Source of the DNA: a virus
IMG/VR virus record: IMGVR_UViG_3300013286_000013
Location: 9,189 to 73,188 of that record
Length of the DNA: 64,000 nt
Direction: 5' to 3' (one strand)
The notes below the pieces were generated by a model, which searched no databases, was not told the origin of the DNA, and saw only the letters and a list, made by a program, of their open reading frames with translations. Positions 8,982 to 20,920 of this stretch are shown here, one piece after another. Position 1 is the first letter of the stretch. Each line of letters starts with the position of its first letter. The translations under genes were made by a program, and so were the position numbers.

Positions 8982-11900
8982 TTAACTTGTTTTTGTCAGC
9001 ATTAGTTTATCTAAAGGACTAAGTGCTCGCTGTGTTCCATATAGACTGTTCACAGTGTTTATTTCAACGTAGTATCCTCCAATGCCTTGTAGCGTTCGGA
9101 TTGCATTGGCATTATTTGACTCAACTGACCCTAGTCCTTGAACTGCGGGTGGCAGTCCATTGGTATTTAAACTTGCATTGTTTAACTCTGCGGCGCTCCT
9201 GAATTTGTCAAACTGTTGAGTAGCATTTAAGGGGTTGCTGCCGCCTGTTCCGTTTGCCTGCCCTCTAGATCCGCCAAGAAGAGCTAACAATGCTCCCACT
9301 GATGCAAAAGATGAGGCTCCTGGTAGATTAGCAATGTTTCCACCATTAGCAAGAATTTTTTGCAGATCATACTGGCTAACATTTGCAAGAGGCGATTTAG
9401 TCAGTGCTTGTAGTGCGGGTAAGTTGGCAATGCCGGCGCCTGTTAAATTCTTTAGGCTGAGACCCAGCGCCTGGAATCCTTGGATATTTGCATCTTTAGG
9501 TACAGACGCTAATACTTTTTGTAGCTTTGACAATAGTGATGTTTGCTGGTCAGTTGACAGCCCCGAAAATTGTGCAGGATCAATCCCTAACTGTGCGGCA
9601 ATTGCTGTAGGATCGGTAGGTACACCGTTTAATGCGGCAATGGTTTTCTGTCCAATGTTATTAAGATTGGAATCTTTAGAGGGGTTGGTAATATAATTTT
9701 TTCCATCAGCTGTAATTATATTATTTTTATAATTTGTTTCTAATGTATAGAGATTATTAGTGTCTTGTACAAAGCTGGAAATAATATTTGCCTGCGCATT
9801 TTGATTCGCTTGATTCTGTGCAGTTTTACTAGGAGCCGGTATCGTTGTTGTTTGCAATGGAATGCCGCTTGTGTAGGGATTATATCCTGTCAACGATTGA
9901 CCGACTGCTGGTGCACCAGGGTTGTTTAACAAGGCATCTGCAACTGCAACCAATCCTCCTATTTGCACACCTACTGAGGCAATAGCCTGTAACGGAGCTA
10001 CTACTCCCTGTATCACTCCAAGTCCATCTGAAATAGCGGCATCAATTCTTTTGACTGACGACTGCAATGCTCCAGATGTTTGGGCAAAAAGCCCCTGTGC
10101 CGACGCCATCAATCCTGCCAATCCCAGGCTGGGAATTTGAGGATTTAAAATCTTACTTAGATCGGCAGTCTGCCTCTTAGTGCCAAACTTATTCACAGAG
10201 GCCGGAGCAGAGTCCGCCGTCTGCTGTTGGCCGGGCTCCGGAGAACTCTTAAAGGGAATTGAAGGTGTTATTTTCTTAGACGGTTGTTGGCCTGCAAGTC
10301 TTATCAGATTCAGTGTTTGGGTAAACTCGCCATCCCTAAAATGATGGTCCATCGATCTCACTAGGAATATTCCACTGAAGTGATCAACAGTTTCTCCGCC
10401 AAAATCCATAAATCCGTCTGATCGATAATCTCGAGGATTTTTAAAATCAATGCTTATGTAAATCTCACCATCTAGCCACGGAGCTTCTCCGTTCTGATTT
10501 TGGGTTTCAGTTTTAAATTCAGAGACAACATTACTCATACCCGAAGTTACAAGATAGTAAGGATCACCAATAATTTTGCAAGTCATTCCTTGCATTTCGC
10601 TATTGTCAAGTAGACTAAGTTGTATAGCTTTTGCTAGAGACTGATACGGTGATATCTGTAGCGGTTTTCCATCTAGTCCGCTGGCGCTGGTATCGCCAGC
10701 AATGGCCGGAGCAGTATTAACTTGAGCACTAGGATTATGCTTTGCTTGATCAGAGACAGCTATCTTCACAGTATTAGACGGAGATGCACCCATTGAGGTT
10801 GCAGATCTATCTTGCACTCCTAATTTGTAAGGACGCTGTTGATAATATAAGGCATTGAAACTGATTCTAAAATCTATTAAGTCAACATTTTTTCCGGTAT
10901 AGATATAATTGTATGTTCTAGATAATGTTCTTTTTAACCCCTCAGTATCCCAGGATCCAAATTCTTCAGGCAGACGTGAATAATGTATCCAATATGGTCT
11001 AATTTCGTAGGTAATGGTATAAGCGGGCCGATTTTCTTTAGGATTTCTTTTTTCTTTTAATTTTGTAGTGACATGAATCCTGTACCAAGGAACCTTACCA
11101 TTGTATTTGCTTTTCCATTTATCTTTATTATCAATAAAATCTTTAGTGTATTCGCTGTCTCGTATAACAACATCTATAATATCAAAAATTTTAGTTCCTG
11201 CTTTAACAGAGATTGTTTCCCCTTTTTTATCATACCTGACCGCAGTAACTTCTTTGTCTACAAATCTATAATTATTTTTTGATGTTTTGTCAGTAGGTGC
11301 CGCAAACTCAAACATAGAGTTTGCCCTTAGAAAATCGTTGATTTTTTTATTTTCAATAGTGATAGTTTCTGCAGACCCGTCGGGTGCTTTTATTGGTAAG
11401 AATTTAATTTCATACGAATTAAAAATTGGAGATCCTTCAGCATCGTTACTTTTGCTTTTTGCTGTTTCAACCTCTTTTACCAAGTTCGTCAGCATGTCGC
11501 CGACTGTTTCGCCCTTCATCTTCATAGTTACCGGAATGTTGGCATCAAGTCCTAATACGTTTGCATTAAGATTTACTAAGCCGCATCTGTAACTTGTACC
11601 ACGCTCATCGGCAGTTATTTGAACAGTGTTTAAGCCAACTGTCCAATATCTTTCAGATCTTGGTACTTTCTCAGCTTTACCTGTTGTGTCGTTCCACCCC
11701 CAGAACTCTATCTTTAGGCATAATGGCTTATCAACATGATCTTCATAACCGGCCGCTAGACAATTGACTCTTAGGGACTCGAGGAATCCGTTCATGCTGA
11801 GAGGTTCTACTACAGTCAGTTGGAATTGAGTTACTACAGCTCCTTCAGTCAACATCCAGGGACCATTCATTTCGAGGCTTTCTACAAATAGATCAAATCG

Positions 11901-14441: not shown

Positions 14442-15455
14442 ATGGGACTTTTTAAGAAGGTAGCATGTTTCACCGACATCCATTTTGGGTTGAAGTCAAA
14501 CTCTGCTACACATAATCAAGATTGTGAAGAATTTGTAGATTGGTTTATTGCCAAAGCCAAAGAAGAAGGTGCAGAGTCCTGCATCTTTCTCGGAGACTGG
14601 CATCACAACAGAAACAGCATCAATCTAATTACGCTAGATACTTCAATCCGTTGCTTGGAAAAGCTAGGTGCGGCATTTGAACAGTTCTTTTGGTTTCCAG
14701 GAAACCACGACCTCTTTTATAAAGACAAGCGTGAGATACACTCCAGTGCATTTGGTCGTCATATCCCGGGTGTTACAGTGGTAGACAGTATATGGACAAA
14801 AGACGAGGTTACTCTTGTTCCGTGGCTGATAGGCGACGAGTGGAAGACCATGCGAGAGCTAAAAAGCAAATATGTCTTTGGTCACTTTGAGCTTCCTTTG
14901 TTCTATATGAACGCAATGGTACAGATGCCCGACCACGGTGAACTACGTAGAGAAGACTTTGCTGGTCCGGACTATGTATTCAGCGGGCACTTCCACAAGC
15001 GACAAGCCAACAACAATATCGTCTATATCGGTAATGCATTTCCCCACAACTATTCAGATGCATGGGATGATGACCGTGGCATGATGGTGTTAGAATGGGG
15101 TGGCAAGCCTGAATATCACATCTGGGAAGATGCTCCTAAGTTTAGAACTATTAAATTATCAGATCTAATTGACCGTAAAGACGATGTTCTCAAGAGTAAG
15201 ATGTATCTTAGAGTAAATCTTGACCTTCCGATTACATTTGAAGAAGCTAATTTTATTAAAGAAGACTTTAGTAGCAATTACAACATACGAGAAATGAGTC
15301 TTATACAAGAAAAGACCACCCTCGAAGGTGTGATCGACGATTCAGCTGATGCAAAATTTGAATCAGTAGACCAAATTGTTACTGAGCAGTTGATTAATAT
15401 CGAGTCTGATCAGTTTGAACAAAAACTATTGTTGGACATTTACCATAATCTATGA
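14442..15455 (+). CDS. Recombination nuclease subunit, gp47/Mre11/SbcD-like
   Basis: Metallophosphoesterase motifs FTDIHFG, FLGDWHH, PGNHD, FGHFE, FSGHFH. Confidence 0.93.
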   Translation: MGLFKKVACFTDIHFGLKSNSATHNQDCEEFVDWFIAKAKEEGAESCIFLGDWHHNRNSINLITLDTSIRCLEKLGAAFEQFFWFPGNHDLFYKDKREIHSSAFGRHIPGVTVVDSIWTKDEVTLVPWLIGDEWKTMRELKSKYVFGHFELPLFYMNAMVQMPDHGELRREDFAGPDYVFSGHFHKRQANNNIVYIGNAFPHNYSDAWDDDRGMMVLEWGGKPEYHIWEDAPKFRTIKLSDLIDRKDDVLKSKMYLRVNLDLPITFEEANFIKEDFSSNYNIREMSLIQEKTTLEGVIDDSADAKFESVDQIVTEQLINIESDQFEQKLLLDIYHNL

Positions 15456-17239
15456 CATTTAAAATAAAAAACATCACAGTTAGAAACTTTCTTAGCGTAG
15501 GTAATCAAACTCAAGCAGTTGATTTTGATAAAGAACACTTGACTCTAGTGCTGGGTGAAAACTTAGACCTAGGGGGAGATGATAGCGGAAGCCGTAACGG
15601 TACAGGTAAGACCACCATTGTCAACGCACTATGCTATGCGCTCTACGGAAACGCACTAACTAACATTCGCAAAGAGAACTTGATCAATAAAACCAACGGC
15701 AAAGGCATGTTGGTCACTGTTGAGTTTGATGTAAATGGCATTTCTTATCGTATTGAGCGCGGTCGTAAGCCTAACATTTTAAAGTTTTACGTCAACGATC
15801 AGGAACAGAAATCAGTAGATGTTGAAGATGATGCTCAGGGCGATAGCCGTGAAACGCAGAAACATATAGAACAATTACTGGGTATGAGCCCGTTGATGTT
15901 CAAGCATTTGGTAGCGTTGAACACTTATACTGAACCTTTTTTGAGTCTTAAAGCGGCAGAACAACGTGAGATCATTGAGCAATTATTAGGCATAACTCTG
16001 CTTTCAGAGAAGGCAGAAAGCCTTAAAGCTCAAATGAAAGACACCAAAGACGCTATTATTTCAGAGTCTGCAAAGATTGAAGCTACTAAAACTGCTAACG
16101 AAAACGTTCAAAAGAGCATCGATAGCCTAGGAATTAAGAGTTCAGCATGGGAATCTAAGAAAGATAACGACCTAGAAGGGCTAGGCAAAGCTATTGTGCA
16201 ATTAAGTTCTGTAGATATTGAGTTAGAAATTGGTCTGCATGAGAAACTTAAAATGTGGACTGAGAACAACAACAAGATTAAAGATCTTAACAAACAACGT
16301 GCTACTTTAGAATCTGCGATCGGGCAAGCTGAAAAAAGCGTAAAGAAGTATAGTGGCGAGCTAGAAAAACTTGCAAATAAAACATGTCATGCCTGTGAAC
16401 AAGAACTCCACGATCACAAGCACAGTGAAATGACTGCTGAGGCTACTACACACTTGGCTGAAGCCAACACATATTTTGATAAAGTCACTAAAGATTTTAA
16501 CAAGATACAAAAAGAAATCAAGGCGATTGGTGAGCTAGATAAAAAGCCAACGACCTTTTACGAAACACTACAGGAAGCACTTGGACATAAGAATAATCTT
16601 GCTAATCTTGAGAAGGCACTTGAAACAAAGGTAATTGAGCCAAATCCCTATGTAGAACAGATTGAAGAATTAAAACATACTGCACTACAGGATATCGATT
16701 GGAACTCTATTAATTCTCTAACAAAATTTAAAGAGCATCAAGAATTCCTGTACAAACTGTTGACAAACAAAGATTCATTTATCCGCAAGAAGATCATTGA
16801 TCAAAACTTGACGTTCTTGAACAAGCGTCTAGGATACTATATTGATAAAATTGGTTTGCCACATGCTGTTGTATTCCAAAATGACCTTACTGTGGAAATT
16901 ACCCAGCTAGGACAGGACTTGGACTTTGACAACTTGAGTCGTGGTGAGCGTAATAGACTGATCTTAGGATTGAGTTGGGCGTTCCGTGATGTTTGGGAAA
17001 ACCTGTACCAGCACGTAAACTTGTTGTTTATAGACGAACTTATCGATGCAGGCATGGACGCGGCAGGCGTCGAAGCGGGACTTGCAGTTCTTAAGAAGAT
17101 GGCCCGTGAGCGCAATAAGAATATCTACTTGATCAGTCATAAAGATGAGCTAATCGGACGTGTTAACAACGTGCTTCACGTGATTAAAGAGAACGGATTT
17201 ACCAGTTACTCAAACGATGTCGACTACGTAGAGGCATGA
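15452..17239 (+). CDS. Recombination ATPase subunit, gp46/Rad50/SbcC-like
   Basis: Walker A GSRNGTGKT, coiled coil with zinc hook CHAC, signature LSRGE, Walker B LLFIDE, H-loop LISH. Confidence 0.95.
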   Translation: MTFKIKNITVRNFLSVGNQTQAVDFDKEHLTLVLGENLDLGGDDSGSRNGTGKTTIVNALCYALYGNALTNIRKENLINKTNGKGMLVTVEFDVNGISYRIERGRKPNILKFYVNDQEQKSVDVEDDAQGDSRETQKHIEQLLGMSPLMFKHLVALNTYTEPFLSLKAAEQREIIEQLLGITLLSEKAESLKAQMKDTKDAIISESAKIEATKTANENVQKSIDSLGIKSSAWESKKDNDLEGLGKAIVQLSSVDIELEIGLHEKLKMWTENNNKIKDLNKQRATLESAIGQAEKSVKKYSGELEKLANKTCHACEQELHDHKHSEMTAEATTHLAEANTYFDKVTKDFNKIQKEIKAIGELDKKPTTFYETLQEALGHKNNLANLEKALETKVIEPNPYVEQIEELKHTALQDIDWNSINSLTKFKEHQEFLYKLLTNKDSFIRKKIIDQNLTFLNKRLGYYIDKIGLPHAVVFQNDLTVEITQLGQDLDFDNLSRGERNRLILGLSWAFRDVWENLYQHVNLLFIDELIDAGMDAAGVEAGLAVLKKMARERNKNIYLISHKDELIGRVNNVLHVIKENGFTSYSNDVDYVEA

Positions 17240-17475
17240 AGCTAAATCAGTACATAGAACTGCATGAAAGATATATTTCGTTGTTGGTAGACTATCACAA
17301 CGCATATACATCATGGGTTAAAAGTCAGTCGCTAGAAAAGACTACAGCATTGCGAAAGATTCTCAAAGAGATGCGTAAGGTACAACACGAAATGTGGGCT
17401 ACCGCAAACGACGCTATGAAAGAATCCAAGCAACGCAAGCGACAAAAATGGAACAGAGAACATAAGGAACAATAA
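17236..17475 (+). CDS. Hypothetical helical basic protein, possible distant Hc1-like paralogue
   Basis: 79 aa; ATGA overlap with gp46 and TAATG overlap with next gene; basic C-terminus. Confidence 0.6.
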   Translation: MKLNQYIELHERYISLLVDYHNAYTSWVKSQSLEKTTALRKILKEMRKVQHEMWATANDAMKESKQRKRQKWNREHKEQ

Positions 17476-17669
17476 TGTCAGATACAATCCAAGCAATTAA
17501 AGATGCTGTAACAGCATGGGAAGCAGAAGATACAAAATTTGAAAAAGGTAACAGCGCCGCTGGTACCCGAGCTCGTAAGGCACTAGGCGAACTTAGCAAA
17601 TTAGTCAAAGCTCGCCGCAACGAAATCACAACAGAAAAGAATGCCCGCAAAGAAGCCAAGGTAGCCTAA
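17475..17669 (+). CDS. Histone H1-like Hc1-family small DNA-binding protein
   Basis: KFEKGNSAAGTRARKALGELSKLVKARR matches the Hc1 N-terminal motif GNKAAxxRxR; SD AAGGA. Confidence 0.75.
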   Translation: MSDTIQAIKDAVTAWEAEDTKFEKGNSAAGTRARKALGELSKLVKARRNEITTEKNARKEAKVA

Positions 17670-18218
17670 ATGCGATTCAATTATTTTTTTGTTAAAGGAT
17701 TTTACTCTCCGGATGAGGTCACTAGACTAAAAAATATCTTAATTAAGAATCAAGATAAAACCCAACCAGACGTGCCTGCTAAGAATGTTGTAAAAACAGC
17801 CGAAGTAGGTATTGTTCCGATCCTTGCCTTGCAGGAACACATTGGTGGCATTTTGAATCTAATTAAAAAAATCAATAAAGAAAACTTTGGTTTTGATCTC
17901 TATGATTTCACTGAGTATGATACTGTAAATTATAATCAGTACAATTCAGATACCAACGGTGAGTACGGGTGGCATACAGATTTTCCTTTGAGTTTCTTTC
18001 ATCAGATCAAACTTACTGTGTTGGTTAACCTAAGTACAGAAAGTTATGAGGGCGGAGACTTTGAGATTTTTTTAAACGGTCCTATTCCTATTCCTGATTT
18101 TAAGGAACCAGGCGGAGTGTTAATTTTTCCATCGTACATATCGCACAGAGTTACACCAGTAACAAAAGGATCTAGATCATCTATGAGCTTGTTTGTTACA
18201 GGTCCACGTCTAAGGTAA
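17670..18218 (+). CDS. 2OG-Fe(II) oxygenase (PKHD/prolyl-hydroxylase-like)
   Basis: WHTD (HxD), KLTVLVNLS..YEGGDF, IFPSYISHRVTPVTKGSRSS (distal His and 2OG-binding Arg). Confidence 0.92.
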   Translation: MRFNYFFVKGFYSPDEVTRLKNILIKNQDKTQPDVPAKNVVKTAEVGIVPILALQEHIGGILNLIKKINKENFGFDLYDFTEYDTVNYNQYNSDTNGEYGWHTDFPLSFFHQIKLTVLVNLSTESYEGGDFEIFLNGPIPIPDFKEPGGVLIFPSYISHRVTPVTKGSRSSMSLFVTGPRLR

Positions 18219-18219
18219 T

Positions 18220-18648
18220 ATGGATTGGATTCATAATGGTATGGTAGTTGCAGAACTACCAGAGGATTGTGTCGGTTTTGTTTATCTCATTACCAACAAT
18301 CTTACAGGCAGAAAATATATAGGCAAAAAATTAGCAAAGTTTGCAAAGACGACCTACAAGACTGTAAAGTTAAAGAACGGCACAAAGAAGAAAAGGAAAA
18401 TCCGTAGTAAGATTGCCAGCGACTGGCAAGAGTATTACGGATCCAATTTAGAATTAAACACAGACGTACTAAAGTTAGGCAAAGAACAATTCACCCGAGA
18501 GATCCTGCACTATTGCAAAAGCAAAGCAGTATGCTCTTACATCGAGGCCCTTGAACAATTCAACCGCAAAGTATTAGAATCACAAGATTACTATAACGGA
18601 CAGATCTCAGTCCGTGTCCATGGCTCTCACATAATCAACAAAATCTAG
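18220..18648 (+). CDS. Small GIY-YIG-family nuclease-like protein
   Basis: GFVYLITNNLTGRKYIGKK (GIY-YIG signature), YYGS, FTREIL, conserved Glu (YIEALEQ) and YYN; Lys/Arg-rich insert KTVKLKNGTKKKRKIRSK. Confidence 0.8.
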   Translation: MDWIHNGMVVAELPEDCVGFVYLITNNLTGRKYIGKKLAKFAKTTYKTVKLKNGTKKKRKIRSKIASDWQEYYGSNLELNTDVLKLGKEQFTREILHYCKSKAVCSYIEALEQFNRKVLESQDYYNGQISVRVHGSHIINKI

Positions 18649-18649
18649 G

Positions 18650-19095
18650 CTCAGTCTTACAGGATATGCTCGCACCGGCTTAAATCGGGTGCCTAGCGAC
18701 AACCGGATAATAACGGGGACGGAAGCCTCTGCGCTGTACAGAGCACTTATCAACCATCCTTGACAGGACGACGATCGCTATGCCGCGATTTTGATATTTG
18801 AATAGAGTGAATAAGAGCTAAAAGAGGGGAGAAAAACCCCGGACTTAACGTATATGTTAGCGTATGTATGTTAGGTTACCGTCATAAAAAGACGTAGCTA
18901 GGGGTACAGGATGACCGCCTCAGTAATGCTACAACGCTAAGTGACTTGCGTACTCAGATAATGCCAAGTGAACTTTACCCGGTTACCTGGGTTAAGTGTG
19001 ACCATTATATCTAGATAATACTTAAACATCTAAAGATGTTCTAGAAAATGCTCTGAGCGCAAGCGAAAGAGCAAGTGAACGCAGTTCACTTTTAG
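18650..19095 (+). ncRNA. Candidate large structured non-coding RNA, family not recognised
   Basis: Longest non-coding gap in the window; about 12 consecutive hairpins, including a 15-bp stem (18843-18876) with five G-U pairs that form only on the + strand. Confidence 0.6.
19073..19093 (+). terminator. Possible intrinsic terminator or stable GCA-triloop hairpin
   Basis: AAGTGAAC-GCA-GTTCACTT followed by TT. Confidence 0.45.
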
Positions 19096-19104
19096 CATTA
19101 AACA

Positions 19105-19110
19105 TAAATA
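19105..19110 (+). promoter_or_regulatory. Late promoter TAAATA
   Basis: CATAAATA upstream of SD GGAGA (19119-19123) and ATG 19132. Confidence 0.7.
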
Positions 19111-19131
19111 TTCTTGCTGGAGAATGCAAAA

Positions 19132-19824
19132 ATGAAAATAAGTGAATTAGTAATGGAAAGCCATAAACTTGATGAAGCTCCTATGGGCATGCTCAGTAAG
19201 TTTGGCAATAAAGTGATGAGTAAATTTGGTAGCGATACTTCTACTGGAAAGCTAAAGTCAGGTGATGTAGCTAATAAGTTATATTCAGCGTTCAATCAAT
19301 ATCTAGGTCAATCAGGACAACAGCCAACATGGCCTGTTGTTTCAAAATGGTTACAGTCAAACAAGTATCCTATCAAGATGGCACAGAAAGTAGTTCAAGG
19401 TGCCAAAGCAGATGCCGCCATTCCACAAGGGCCTAGCATGTTGGACAGAGCTAAATCTGGTGCTCGACAAGTTGGTAATAAGATTAAACAGGGTGCAGAG
19501 AAAGTAGCTAACTATGCTATGGACAAAGCTGGTGCTCCTGGAGAGTTTGCTGAAGGTAAAATTAGTGAAGCTACTGGTGCTCCACTAGATAAGAAAACAC
19601 TAGAGAAAGTGTTCATGGCGGCCGCTCAAGAAGCCGCAGTAGTTGTTCAACAACGTAAGCAAGGTGGTGGACAGCCTAATCAAAAAAATAACGGACAGCA
19701 ACAGCTATCTGTTCAACAAGGTGGTAAGAGTCAAGGTGGAGATGCTAAGTTGGCGCAACGTGTTAGCAACCTTGAAGCTGAAGTTGCCGCACTAAAAGGA
19801 TCTGGGGAACAAAACGCCGCTTAA
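19132..19824 (+). CDS. Late hypothetical protein, probable internal head protein
   Basis: Start moved to ATG 19132 (SD and promoter). N-terminal MKISELVMESHKLDEA contains I/L-x-E sites like those cut by gp21; Gln/Gly/Lys-rich. Confidence 0.6.
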   Translation: MKISELVMESHKLDEAPMGMLSKFGNKVMSKFGSDTSTGKLKSGDVANKLYSAFNQYLGQSGQQPTWPVVSKWLQSNKYPIKMAQKVVQGAKADAAIPQGPSMLDRAKSGARQVGNKIKQGAEKVANYAMDKAGAPGEFAEGKISEATGAPLDKKTLEKVFMAAAQEAAVVVQQRKQGGGQPNQKNNGQQQLSVQQGGKSQGGDAKLAQRVSNLEAEVAALKGSGEQNAA

Positions 19825-20050
19825 AAGAACGGCAAGCCGCTTTCTTTTGTAGTTTCTAGATTGCTTCTGATTATCTTAGACACTATCTCTCGATCTCCGC
19901 TATCCATCATATAGAGCTGGTCTATTGTTATCCCTCCTCGCATGTACCAACACATTTGATATAGATTATGTTTAATGGCTTCTATCTCTCGATCCATCTC
20001 TTGCACTAGGGCTAAGATCTTATCGTAGGGTAGAGCTAGAAGCCTTATAC
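19821..20050 (-). CDS. gp51-like hub/tail assembly chaperone segment, probably expressed as -1 frameshift extension of the upstream gene
   Basis: -1 frame is open from the slippery site through RIRLLALPYDKILALVQEMDRE..CWYMRGGIT..GLPFF; no SD before GTG 20006. Confidence 0.65.
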
Positions 20051-20920
20051 GAAAAAATTTGCTTCGTTAAACGTGAAAGGAACTTCGATAGTAGGCGGAG
20101 CGCCTTTTTCTAACATTTCCGGAGTACTTTGTATGGTCATTGGCTTTAATTGATTGTTTAAATTAAGAACTCCCAGTCTGTCCTTAATCTTTTCAAATAC
20201 TGCGCTGTCACATTTTTCAATAAACTCTGTAATAAATTCGGGATCTTCTACTACTCCTGCTATACTTTCTATCCTGTAAATAGCCTGACCAATTATGGTA
20301 ATTGTCTTGCTTGTGAGTTTTTGAAAGGCCGCTTGAAATGCCTTGATCTTGTCTTGTTCGGAAGTGTTGTCATCTTTGATAATACTGATTAATCTCTGCG
20401 TGTCAAATTCTCCTATCTGCGCATCAGTCTGACTACGATAGGTTAAAGGTTTAAGATAGACTACTAATTCTGGAGATATTTCAAATCTATCATCCCAATC
20501 AACTTGAGACTGCAGATTTTCTAAAACTTCGCGCACGTTAATTTCATAATCGGTATCGCCGTCAATAGTAGGATGTGTTATTTTCATAGTGAGCATTTCG
20601 CCATATGTAGCTAACCGCACGGCTACTAGAATAGTATCAAGATCAACCTGTGGGCAGTCCCAGGCATCAAGCACGTTGGGCATGCAACTGTGAATAATTT
20701 CTACCATAGCTTGACCGTTCATCAATGCATCTGGAGTTTTTAACAGGAGTTCATCGCGGGCTGTCATTGAAAACACAGGATATTCTCCGTTGACACTTAC
20801 ATTGAGACTGCCTTCTTTCCAATATTTGCCGTTGCTGGGTAACCTAATATAGATCTTGGGCTGTCTTAAAACGCTTAATAACGGATTAATTCTTACTGCT
20901 GGTTGGGTAATTTCTGTCAT
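20045..20920 (-). CDS. Baseplate hub assembly chaperone, gp26-like
   Basis: RQPKIYIRLPSNGKYW..MTARDELLLKTPDALMNG..DLDTILVAVRLATYGE; ends NFFV; SD GGAG upstream. Confidence 0.75.
   Translation of the reverse strand: MTEITQPAVRINPLLSVLRQPKIYIRLPSNGKYWKEGSLNVSVNGEYPVFSMTARDELLLKTPDALMNGQAMVEIIHSCMPNVLDAWDCPQVDLDTILVAVRLATYGEMLTMKITHPTIDGDTDYEINVREVLENLQSQVDWDDRFEISPELVVYLKPLTYRSQTDAQIGEFDTQRLISIIKDDNTSEQDKIKAFQAAFQKLTSKTITIIGQAIYRIESIAGVVEDPEFITEFIEKCDSAVFEKIKDRLGVLNLNNQLKPMTIQSTPEMLEKGAPPTIEVPFTFNEANFFV
20051..20060 (-). other. Putative programmed -1 frameshift slippery site AAATTTTTTC
   Basis: Two overlapping in-frame X XXY YYZ heptamers (A AAT TTT and T TTT TTC) just before GTA TAA. Confidence 0.7.

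Follow-up and report, generated by a model that had tools for sequence, protein, structure and literature searches.

Polynucleobacter-1 (Rfam RF01718) was described by Weinberg et al. 2010 (PMC2864571), whose table enters it as a likely RNA, likely cis-regulatory, with a '?' in the switch column, and gives its sources as Burkholderiales and fresh water or estuary. In our literature search the motif was named in that paper only, and no publication of a full-length RNA was found. Here, we analysed a 64,000-nt stretch (hereafter the window; positions 9,189 to 73,188) of the 73,188-base IMG/VR virus record IMGVR_UViG_3300013286_000013, rated 21% complete. An earlier note, made from the sequence alone, had pointed to a structured RNA candidate directly behind a minimal GIY-YIG nuclease gene in this window, and had suggested that the two might form a nuclease–RNA system. 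We show that positions 18664–19093 on the plus strand are one conserved structured RNA gene, and that it is the full-length form of the orphan motif Polynucleobacter-1, from an uncultured freshwater giant T4-like phage. With a probability of roughly 55%, we read it as an autonomous, single-copy, multiply pseudoknotted phage non-coding RNA (ncRNA) that offers two copies of one word to a trans-acting two-site reader.

Rfam was scanned at the gathering threshold over the whole window, and positions 18500–19250 were searched separately at E ≤ 10. RF01718 matched 18667–18799 (+) with 81.1 bits against a gathering score of 37, and its model was covered in full (1–141 of 141). The RNA had been called unrecognised, a description that fails for its first 133 nt and holds for the remaining ~300 nt, where no Rfam 15 family matched after 18799; within 18500–19250, no Rfam match apart from RF01718 was found at E ≤ 1. 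The family was also matched in 10 of 10 related full-length loci (69–120 bits), and its helices are retained: those at 18672–92, 18748–96 and 18773–90 are 100% paired, with changes on both sides in 5/5, 4/5 and 3/6 pairs, respectively, and the helix at 18727–43 is 98% paired, three of its four pairs having changed on both sides. The covarying pair 18668:18679 may tentatively indicate a small extra knot in this domain. In agreement with the absence of tRNA, tmRNA, RNase P and group I/II intron signatures reported before, ARAGORN found 0 genes in the window and RF01718 was the sole Rfam family to pass there.

Beyond the catalogued part, positions 18843–18934 bear a likeness to cow-rumen-2 (RF02947; 17.7 bits, E 1.5 on 751 nt, gathering score 66), with the same order of elements: a hairpin with a UUAGC loop, GCCG.CAU, and GUAGC..ACAGGAUGACC..GUAA. 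This could be a shared structural module or chance; membership in the family was rejected, as the score lies below the 66-bit gathering score and the family was unseen at E ≤ 1 in the 10 related loci. A blastn search with the 912-nt stretch against 50,697 phage records gave zero matches. In bacterial genome contigs, a core-motif scan returned at least 120 stretches, with no true relative by nhmmer and one marginal 19-bit match, and the Polynucleobacter copy named by Rfam was not re-found among the matches listed. As far as its description goes, a 2023 survey of 8,495 short IMG/VR motifs of 29–151 nt (PMC10690425) dropped candidates overlapping Rfam; pieces of the uncatalogued tail may be among its motifs.

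The RNA is conserved from end to end. At least 570 relatives of the GIY-YIG protein were found in viral contigs; the best 80 defined the protein-selected loci, and an nhmmer profile recovered the RNA in 74 of these. A blastn comparison of the gap behind the nuclease gene detected homologous DNA in 68 of 86 loci, mostly right after the stop codon, over nearly the full gap and at 65–75% identity. Compared with 100 shuffles, the plus strand folds with z = −3.21 (0/100 as good) and the minus strand with z = −2.08. On alignment A1 (45 non-redundant copies, MAFFT, structure-blind), the RNAalifold consensus has 60 pairs, of which 40 show compensatory changes. In a manual model of 77 pairs, 88.7% of cells are paired, compared with 73.7 ± 0.4% in column shuffles (0/500 reach the observed value) and 34–45% when the 3′ partners are slid by 1–3 columns; 58 of the 77 pairs have changed on both sides, with a covariation score of 0.455 versus 0.185. 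Cleanly aligned helices contain 154 G–U cells and 5 A–C cells, and because G–U lies so far above A–C, selection appears to act on the plus-strand RNA, as the G–U pairs of the single sequence had already suggested. Alignment, covariation and mutual information (MI; 87 non-redundant full-length copies) thus bear out a large structured ncRNA directly behind the GIY-YIG stop codon, and the stems listed from the window alone are all present, most of them covarying in the 45 non-redundant relatives. The RNA is single-copy in five of five large records (221–355 kb), one of which, with 354,680 bases, is rated 100% complete; contigs of this length mark the phages as giant T4-like. Sequencing runs containing near-identical DNA are lake or freshwater samples.

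Downstream of the catalogued domain, the fold contains two well-supported pseudoknots. In the first, which involves the loop of the long hairpin H2, all seven pairs have changed on both sides, 97.4% of cells are paired in the structure-blind MAFFT alignment, and the MI pairs are 99–100% complementary. The 15-bp stem earlier drawn at 18843–76 is present with its five G–U pairs, except that we read its last two pairs as part of a pseudoknot. The second pseudoknot engages the apical loop of hairpin H4: pairs 18883:18913, 18884:18912 and 18885:18911 are 97–100% complementary, with 2–3 pair types each, and the interaction is also visible in alignment A2. It replaced a candidate helix H3 (18881–83 with 18891–93) that showed zero double changes. 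The top MI pair of the whole RNA, 18895:18931, lies in helix H5, where the GTAGC/GCTAC stem around GGGGT..ACCGCC had been correctly recognized, and MI pairs in H1 (18828:18840) and H6 (18976:18993) are 94% and 95% complementary. Towards the 3′ end, H8 has double changes in 4/4 pairs and its enclosed GNNA hairpin in 2/2, and H9 retains at least 6 of its 8 bp in 78 of 87 relatives.

Two boxes in the 3′ half of the RNA carry the same 7-nt word. In the window RGATAAT had been noticed at 18705, 18956 and 19013; the last two occurrences are the conserved twin word, and the one at 18705 is not conserved. As direct repeats, the boxes agree in their variable letters and do not complement each other. 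At columns 18956/19013, 18957/19014, 18960/19017 and 18962/19019, 99% of 87 sequences have the same letter in both boxes, and the full word is equal in both boxes of 86 of the 87 non-redundant RNAs, the exception looking misaligned. The same equality holds in 158 of 158 loci where a pattern search found both boxes (in 24 further loci, it missed one or both). The word itself varies: nine forms occur in the non-redundant set (AGAUAAU 28, GGAUAAU 18, GGAUGAA 13, GGAUGAU 9, GAAUAAU 7, GCAUAAU 4 and three rarer ones), with further words outside it bringing the overall number to 9–12. When mapped on a maximum-likelihood tree, quickly built and with the box columns left out, the word requires 34 or more changes, and shuffled labels give 47–54. 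The same words stand behind GIY-YIG genes, behind PD-(D/E)XK genes, and in loci without a nuclease.

By MI, the variable box columns covary with each other only and with no other column of the RNA, and a complement of its own word was found inside none of the RNAs; a partner within the RNA was rejected on both counts. A phage-encoded antisense partner was rejected as well: using the complement of the word plus RRRU as the pattern and tolerating ACUC and AUCU flanks via G–U, counts in the window's record and in two further genomes, G001 (100% complete) and G002, equalled those of a backwards-pattern control, and matches exceeded chance only on the opposite strand of the boxes themselves. Given neither a covarying partner, a complement nor an antisense match, the reader of the word should therefore lie outside the RNA. 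As for the GIY-YIG protein in this role, the comparison was uninformative: pairs at least 97% identical never differ in their word (0/62), and 66 of 176 pairs at 90–97% identity do. A promoter-like genome motif was also considered and dropped, since YYAGATAAT has 8 matches in the window against 2.8 ± 1.5 expected and the 6 outside the RNA all fall within open reading frames (ORFs). The words follow the pattern [A/G][G/A/C]AU[A/G]A[U/A], that is, NAU plus a purine (GAU, AAU and CAU being Asp, Asn and His codons) or AUA/AUG plus A; one idea is that a tRNA-like reader would take the boxes for codons.

Direct repeats that evolve in concert also resemble iterons, and the transcript might instead prime replication in the manner of an R-loop or of ColE1 RNA II, with the twin boxes serving as iteron-like initiator sites. 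Recombination genes do adjoin the RNA, and in one locus an RNase H gene lies between nuclease and RNA. We nevertheless regard such an origin-like element as very improbable: GC skew has no inflection at 18–19 kb, selection acts on RNA pairing and on one strand, the repeats are just two, neither an initiator gene nor an AT-rich unwinding element turned up, and the word is not enriched at regulatory places, its 6 other matches in the window all lying inside ORFs.

The RNA is independent of the family of nuclease encoded next to it. To locate the RNA irrespective of its neighbours, viral contigs were scanned for the exact core motif (the GGUACNGGNNNACCGCC core), which yielded at least 120 stretches in 119 loci, and nhmmer recognized 102 of these 119 loci as true relatives among the matches listed. 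Nine of the 102 have too little upstream sequence, leaving 93 for assessment. A GIY-YIG ORF lies directly upstream on the same strand in 74 of them and is separated from the RNA by a 257–296-aa ORF in 6 more, so that 80 of 93 have a GIY-YIG gene in all, and 13 have none in the locus. Seven of these 13 encode, in the same slot after gp46, a protein of ~173 aa that belongs to PF24608 ('phage putative PDDEXK endonuclease') and to phrog_244, labelled RusA-like junction resolvase in PHROGs; one, L140, has a 175-aa ORF there that matched no Pfam or PHROG family; and five, four of them distinct, have other gene contexts without any nuclease, one being behind an amidoligase-like gene. GIY-YIG and PDDEXK genes never co-occurred among 205 loci. 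An example of the PF24608 protein is L128:3963–4484, with six other loci, and in L106 an RNase H gene is inserted between this nuclease and the RNA. The extra ORFs between GIY-YIG gene and RNA (L016:3372–4274, L041:2438–3232, L110:4369–5259, L111:8190–9017, L122:10375–11148 and L205:1262–2113), 257–300 aa in length, matched no Pfam or PHROG family.

The nuclease likewise occurs without the RNA. Five of the 79 informative closest GIY-YIG homologues, 75–79% identical to the protein of the window, are followed by coding sequence, and the core covariance model, run with its filters off, found nothing behind them. Among cultured phages, 463 records, most of them from cyanophages, contain a single member of the protein family each, always at <60% identity. 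No large gap follows the GIY-YIG homologue in Melnitz, P-HM1, phiN3, ACP17 or S-SRM01, and neither RF01718 nor the core model R1 matched anywhere in these five genomes; as a positive control, the window's own record scored 81 and 88 bits, respectively.

These distributions bear directly on the proposed nuclease–RNA system, in which the RNA would form a ribonucleoprotein (RNP) with the small upstream nuclease and guide, tether or regulate it, in the way that omega RNAs serve IscB and TnpB. With T4-like synteny, a small ORF always sits directly 5′ of the RNA (80 GIY-YIG, 7 PD-(D/E)XK and 1 family-less ORF among 88 loci), both nucleases are bare catalytic domains, the RNA starts 1–54 nt past the upstream stop codon in relatives (~15 nt in the window), and one RNA-library contig spans the end of the gene and the RNA. 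However, two unrelated nuclease folds share one slot with the same words behind each, five RNA loci lack a nuclease, and the RNA is missing behind 5 of 79 close homologues and from all five cultured phages examined. The earlier note had named a fixed linkage downstream of GIY-YIG homologues and a variable guide-like segment as support, RNA homologues unlinked to the nuclease as refutation, and HEARO or omega RNAs as a precedent. Homologues of the RNA do occur unlinked to the nuclease, the ends of the RNA are a conserved helix and a hairpin with no guide-like variability seen, and no HEARO or other guide family was matched in either Rfam scan. As RNA and nuclease are each found alone, the nuclease–RNA system is not supported, and we consider it the least probable of the explanations weighed here. 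A compact nuclease beside a big RNA does not by itself make an RNA-guided system.

That a small nuclease constantly occupies the slot probably reflects either the slot's place in the gp46/gp47 recombination operon or an insertion hot spot. The 142-aa protein of the window belongs to PF19835 SegE_GIY-YIG (E 1.6e-31, 109.5 bits, residues 3–129) and phrog_447. Its GIY (V21-Y22) and YIG (Y33-I34-G35) motifs are conserved in 18 homologues, in which Y22, Y33, G35, E109, E112 and N126 are invariant. The AlphaFold model (pLDDT 85.2) predicts that the basic insert of ~27 residues after YIG forms a long beta-hairpin. The earlier description, of a minimal enzyme that has a basic insert but lacks a DNA-binding tail, is correct: only 13 residues follow the domain. 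Foldseek found no match at E ≤ 0.001; the I-TevI catalytic domain (1mk0, 1ln0) was retrieved with probabilities of 0.98 and 0.94 and a target-normalised TM of 0.63–0.65, at weak E-values of 0.07–0.17. Searches of PDB sequences, with either the nuclease or its profile as query, gave nothing reliable (only 3r3p, E 0.013, with the profile), and the NCBIfam search with the nuclease gave nothing.

On the hot-spot explanation, the RNA gene is a landmark at which mobile free-standing endonuclease genes insert and replace one another, which would be compatible with the trans-acting RNA that we favour. The best Pfam family is a homing-endonuclease domain, two nuclease families alternate, extra ORFs occupy the same site in 8 loci, and the homologue in ACP17 and S-SRM01 is a lone plus-strand gene among minus-strand genes. 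On the other hand, the slot was occupied in every syntenic locus found, although homing genes tend to be sporadic in their distribution; the DNA-binding half that Seg enzymes have is missing from the protein; and the junction-resolvase label of the PD-(D/E)XK protein fits housekeeping recombination beside gp46/gp47. We regard this explanation of the linkage as quite unlikely.

Weinberg et al. 2010 marked Polynucleobacter-1 as likely cis-regulatory in their table, and in the window the RNA lies between two same-strand genes with a hairpin at its end. It could therefore be a riboswitch-like 5′ leader of the downstream gene, or a 3′ untranslated region (UTR) stabiliser or terminator of the upstream operon. 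Relatives of the 230-aa product of the downstream gene number only 5 in viral contigs, so this gene is not conserved, and the next gene is often on the other strand. TAAATA occurs ≤60 nt past the RNA in 54 of 86 loci, compared with 1.8% of random 60-nt windows. The T4 late-promoter consensus reads TATAAATA, and the ATAAATA box after the RNA in many loci suggests that these phages use T4-type late promoters. An unconserved downstream gene preceded by such a box argues against the leader suggested in 2010, and the cis-regulatory 5′ UTR character of Polynucleobacter-1 is not supported here. The upstream gene varies too, and a stabiliser could be far simpler than an RNA of 430 nt that has invariant loops, two pseudoknots and a twin word changing in concert. 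We judge a cis-acting mRNA element to be unlikely.

Freshwater RNA-seq library X5 contains contigs on 18606–18817 (spanning the nuclease 3′ end and the RNA), 18714–18830 and 18895–19020, a weak hint of transcription. These contigs leave 19043–20100 uncovered, and such lack of cover shows nothing. With only ~15 nt between the nuclease stop codon and the RNA, there is no room for a promoter of its own, and since the RNA starts 1–54 nt past the stop codon of whichever gene lies upstream, co-transcription with the upstream operon would be the simplest arrangement.

Taken together, these data favour an RNA that acts in trans. It would be transcribed as the last element of a rightward gp47–gp46–…–nuclease operon and would end at its own terminator-like hairpin, the next gene being under its own late-type promoter. 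The molecule would be a compact, knotted scaffold in which two pseudoknots and the invariant GGUACNGGNNNACCGCC core are combined with a 5′ domain that can be swapped, and would hold two copies of the 7-nt word in loops. The words may be shown to a two-site reader, which might be a protein dimer or a pair of identical RNAs, and the RNA might thereby serve as a scaffold, decoy or sponge, and not as a guide for the neighbouring nuclease.

Several observations weigh against this interpretation, in which the function, the existence of a reader, the action in trans and the transcript end are all inferred. The comparison of 62 GIY-YIG pairs at least 97% identical, none differing in word, cannot separate the word from the protein, and a small ORF is always directly upstream in loci that have gp46/hub synteny and sufficient upstream sequence (a nuclease in 87, a family-less ORF in 1), so a functional tie between the RNA and the upstream slot may exist. 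The word of box 1 probably sits in a large loop whose closing helix is short and varies in register, a placement that relies on by-eye helices of shifting register and thermodynamic folds, and in partition-function folds the box nucleotides are just 30–70% unpaired on average. Gene conversion at the DNA level could also keep two direct repeats equal. The RNA-library evidence consists of assembled contigs, for which DNA carry-over is possible and strand and level are not fixed. Finally, the U run past the 3′ hairpin is short, which makes termination there uncertain: only 1–3 T occur in the 6 nt after the H9 stem, and the consensus terminator scan did not list H9. A more specific proposal, which we regard as speculative and rather unlikely, is a new phage RNP scaffold whose words are the address for a co-evolving dimeric factor, working with the junction-cutting nuclease of the slot, for example in marking or priming recombination-dependent replication beside gp46/gp47. 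The twin word, which changes often and always in both copies, offers a genetic handle on the partner of the RNA.

The features of the locus are collected in Table 1.

Table 1. Structural elements of the RNA and neighbouring genes (positions in the window)
Feature	Position	Strand	Remarks
Whole structured RNA gene	18664–19093	+	~430 nt; end-to-end conservation, covariation
5′ domain (Polynucleobacter-1)	18667–18799	+	RF01718, pair counts, MI
Helices of the 5′ domain	18672–76/18688–92, 18727–30/18740–43, 18748–52/18792–96, 18758–59/18766–67, 18773–78/18785–90		GCACC/GGTGC, CTCT/AGAG and ATCGC/GCGAT at 18672–92, 18727–43 and 18773–90
Hairpin H1	18826–18840	+	GGGG/CCCC; 3/4 pairs with double changes
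Long hairpin H2	18843–18876	+	11/12 pairs with double changes; loop 18857–18863 in pseudoknot 1
Pseudoknot 1	18857–63 with 18934–40	+	H2 loop UUAGCGU with ACGCUAA
Pseudoknot 2	18882–85 with 18911–14	+	UCAU with H4 apical loop AUGA; found by MI
Helix H5	18895–18931	+	UAGC/GCUA (18895–98 with 18928–31), enclosing hairpin H4 and the invariant GGUACNGGNNNACCGCC core
Twin box 1	18950–18962	+	word AGAUAAU 18956–62
Hairpin H6	18973–18996	+	between the boxes, stem ACTTTACCC/GGGTTAAGT at 18972–97; predicted in 81/87 relatives
Twin box 2	19007–19019	+	word AGAUAAU 19013–19
Variable hairpin	between box 2 and H8		
Helix H8	19050–19072	+	GCUC/GAGC, enclosing GC-GNNA-GC hairpin 19057–64
Terminator-like 3′ hairpin H9 and U run	19073–19093	+	hairpin 19073–91; 7/8 pairs with double changes
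T4-late-promoter-like box	19104–19110	+	ATAAATA, before the next gene
gp47/SbcD-like gene	14442–15455		
gp46/SbcC-like gene	15452–17239		
Two small ORFs	after gp46		one encodes an Hc1 histone-like protein
2OG-Fe(II) oxygenase gene	17670–18218		
GIY-YIG nuclease gene	18220–18648	+	142 aa; upstream neighbour of the RNA, partnership not implied
Gene for 230-aa protein	19132–19824	+	next gene after the RNA
Baseplate hub gene	beyond the 230-aa gene	opposite	

According to the gene annotation of the window, T4-like myovirus genes surround the RNA gap, and the order of genes is constant across loci: gp47, gp46, variable small genes, nuclease, RNA, variable gene(s) and the hub gene on the opposite strand. 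The RNA occupies the only long non-coding gap, as the earlier note had it: 18649–19113 has no ORF of at least 100 aa and 18649–19097 none of at least 60 aa, and the gap is the sole long one in 64 kb because the apparent second one, at 1–2635, is covered by an open-ended minus-strand ORF. The Hc1 histone H1-like protein (64 aa, 17475–17669; PF07432, E 1.6e-15) is encoded between gp46 and the 2OG-Fe(II) oxygenase gene, and relatives of it are present in several related loci. A second subfamily of the RNA (L089, L104, L108, L112, L127 and others), found ~180–220 nt past the GIY-YIG stop codon, keeps the 3′ two-thirds and has a different conserved, covarying 5′ domain; 0/12 match RF01718. Locus L170 (3911–4304, 8395–8851) is a phage contig without T4-type synteny that carries a permuted tmRNA and a tRNA; there, the RNA (RF01718, 64 bits) stands behind an amidoligase-like gene and has the unusual word AGUUGAA in both boxes.

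In sharing a large structured RNA beside a compact nuclease gene, the locus resembles the HEARO/omega RNAs of IscB and TnpB. It differs from them in that no Rfam HEARO or IS605-orfB match was found, the nuclease is GIY-YIG or PD-(D/E)XK and not RuvC/HNH, there is no guide-like variable end, and RNA and nuclease each occur alone. The nuclease, for its part, is like the GIY-YIG homing endonucleases SegE and I-TevI in its PF19835 domain and its GIY and YIG motifs, and its top fold match, at weak E-values, is the I-TevI catalytic domain. Unlike Seg-type enzymes, it has no C-terminal DNA-binding domain and has a basic beta-hairpin insert, and its family is single-copy in the 463 cultured phage records.

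CsrB and RsmZ are protein-sequestering decoy RNAs that offer repeated identical short words in loops to a dimeric reader. The likeness of the phage RNA to them is one of working mode only, with no membership: it has only two copies of the word, and the word is not a fixed GGA motif, since 33 of 86 RNAs have AGA and others GAA or GCA. As a large, intricate, phage-borne RNA revealed by comparative genomics, partly from lake metagenomes, it can also be placed beside GOLLD, ROOL and OLE as they are described in 10.1101/2024.12.08.627333, although it matches none of those Rfam families, is smaller (~430 nt) and does not lie beside tRNAs here. Large RNAs whose tertiary structure is conserved to this degree tend to have mechanistically special roles.

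With Polynucleobacter-1 itself, the RNA shares the full 141-position model and the same habitat, fresh water or estuary, as given for the motif by Weinberg et al. 2010. Whereas the catalogued motif covers the first third only, here it makes up the 5′ domain of an RNA of ~430 nt that adds two pseudoknots, the invariant core, the twin word and the 3′ hairpin, and that resides in phage genomes and not in a bacterial 5′ UTR. An orphan motif filed in 2010 as a bacterial 5′ UTR element thus heads an RNA gene, multiply knotted and present in single copy, in giant T4-like phages from lakes.

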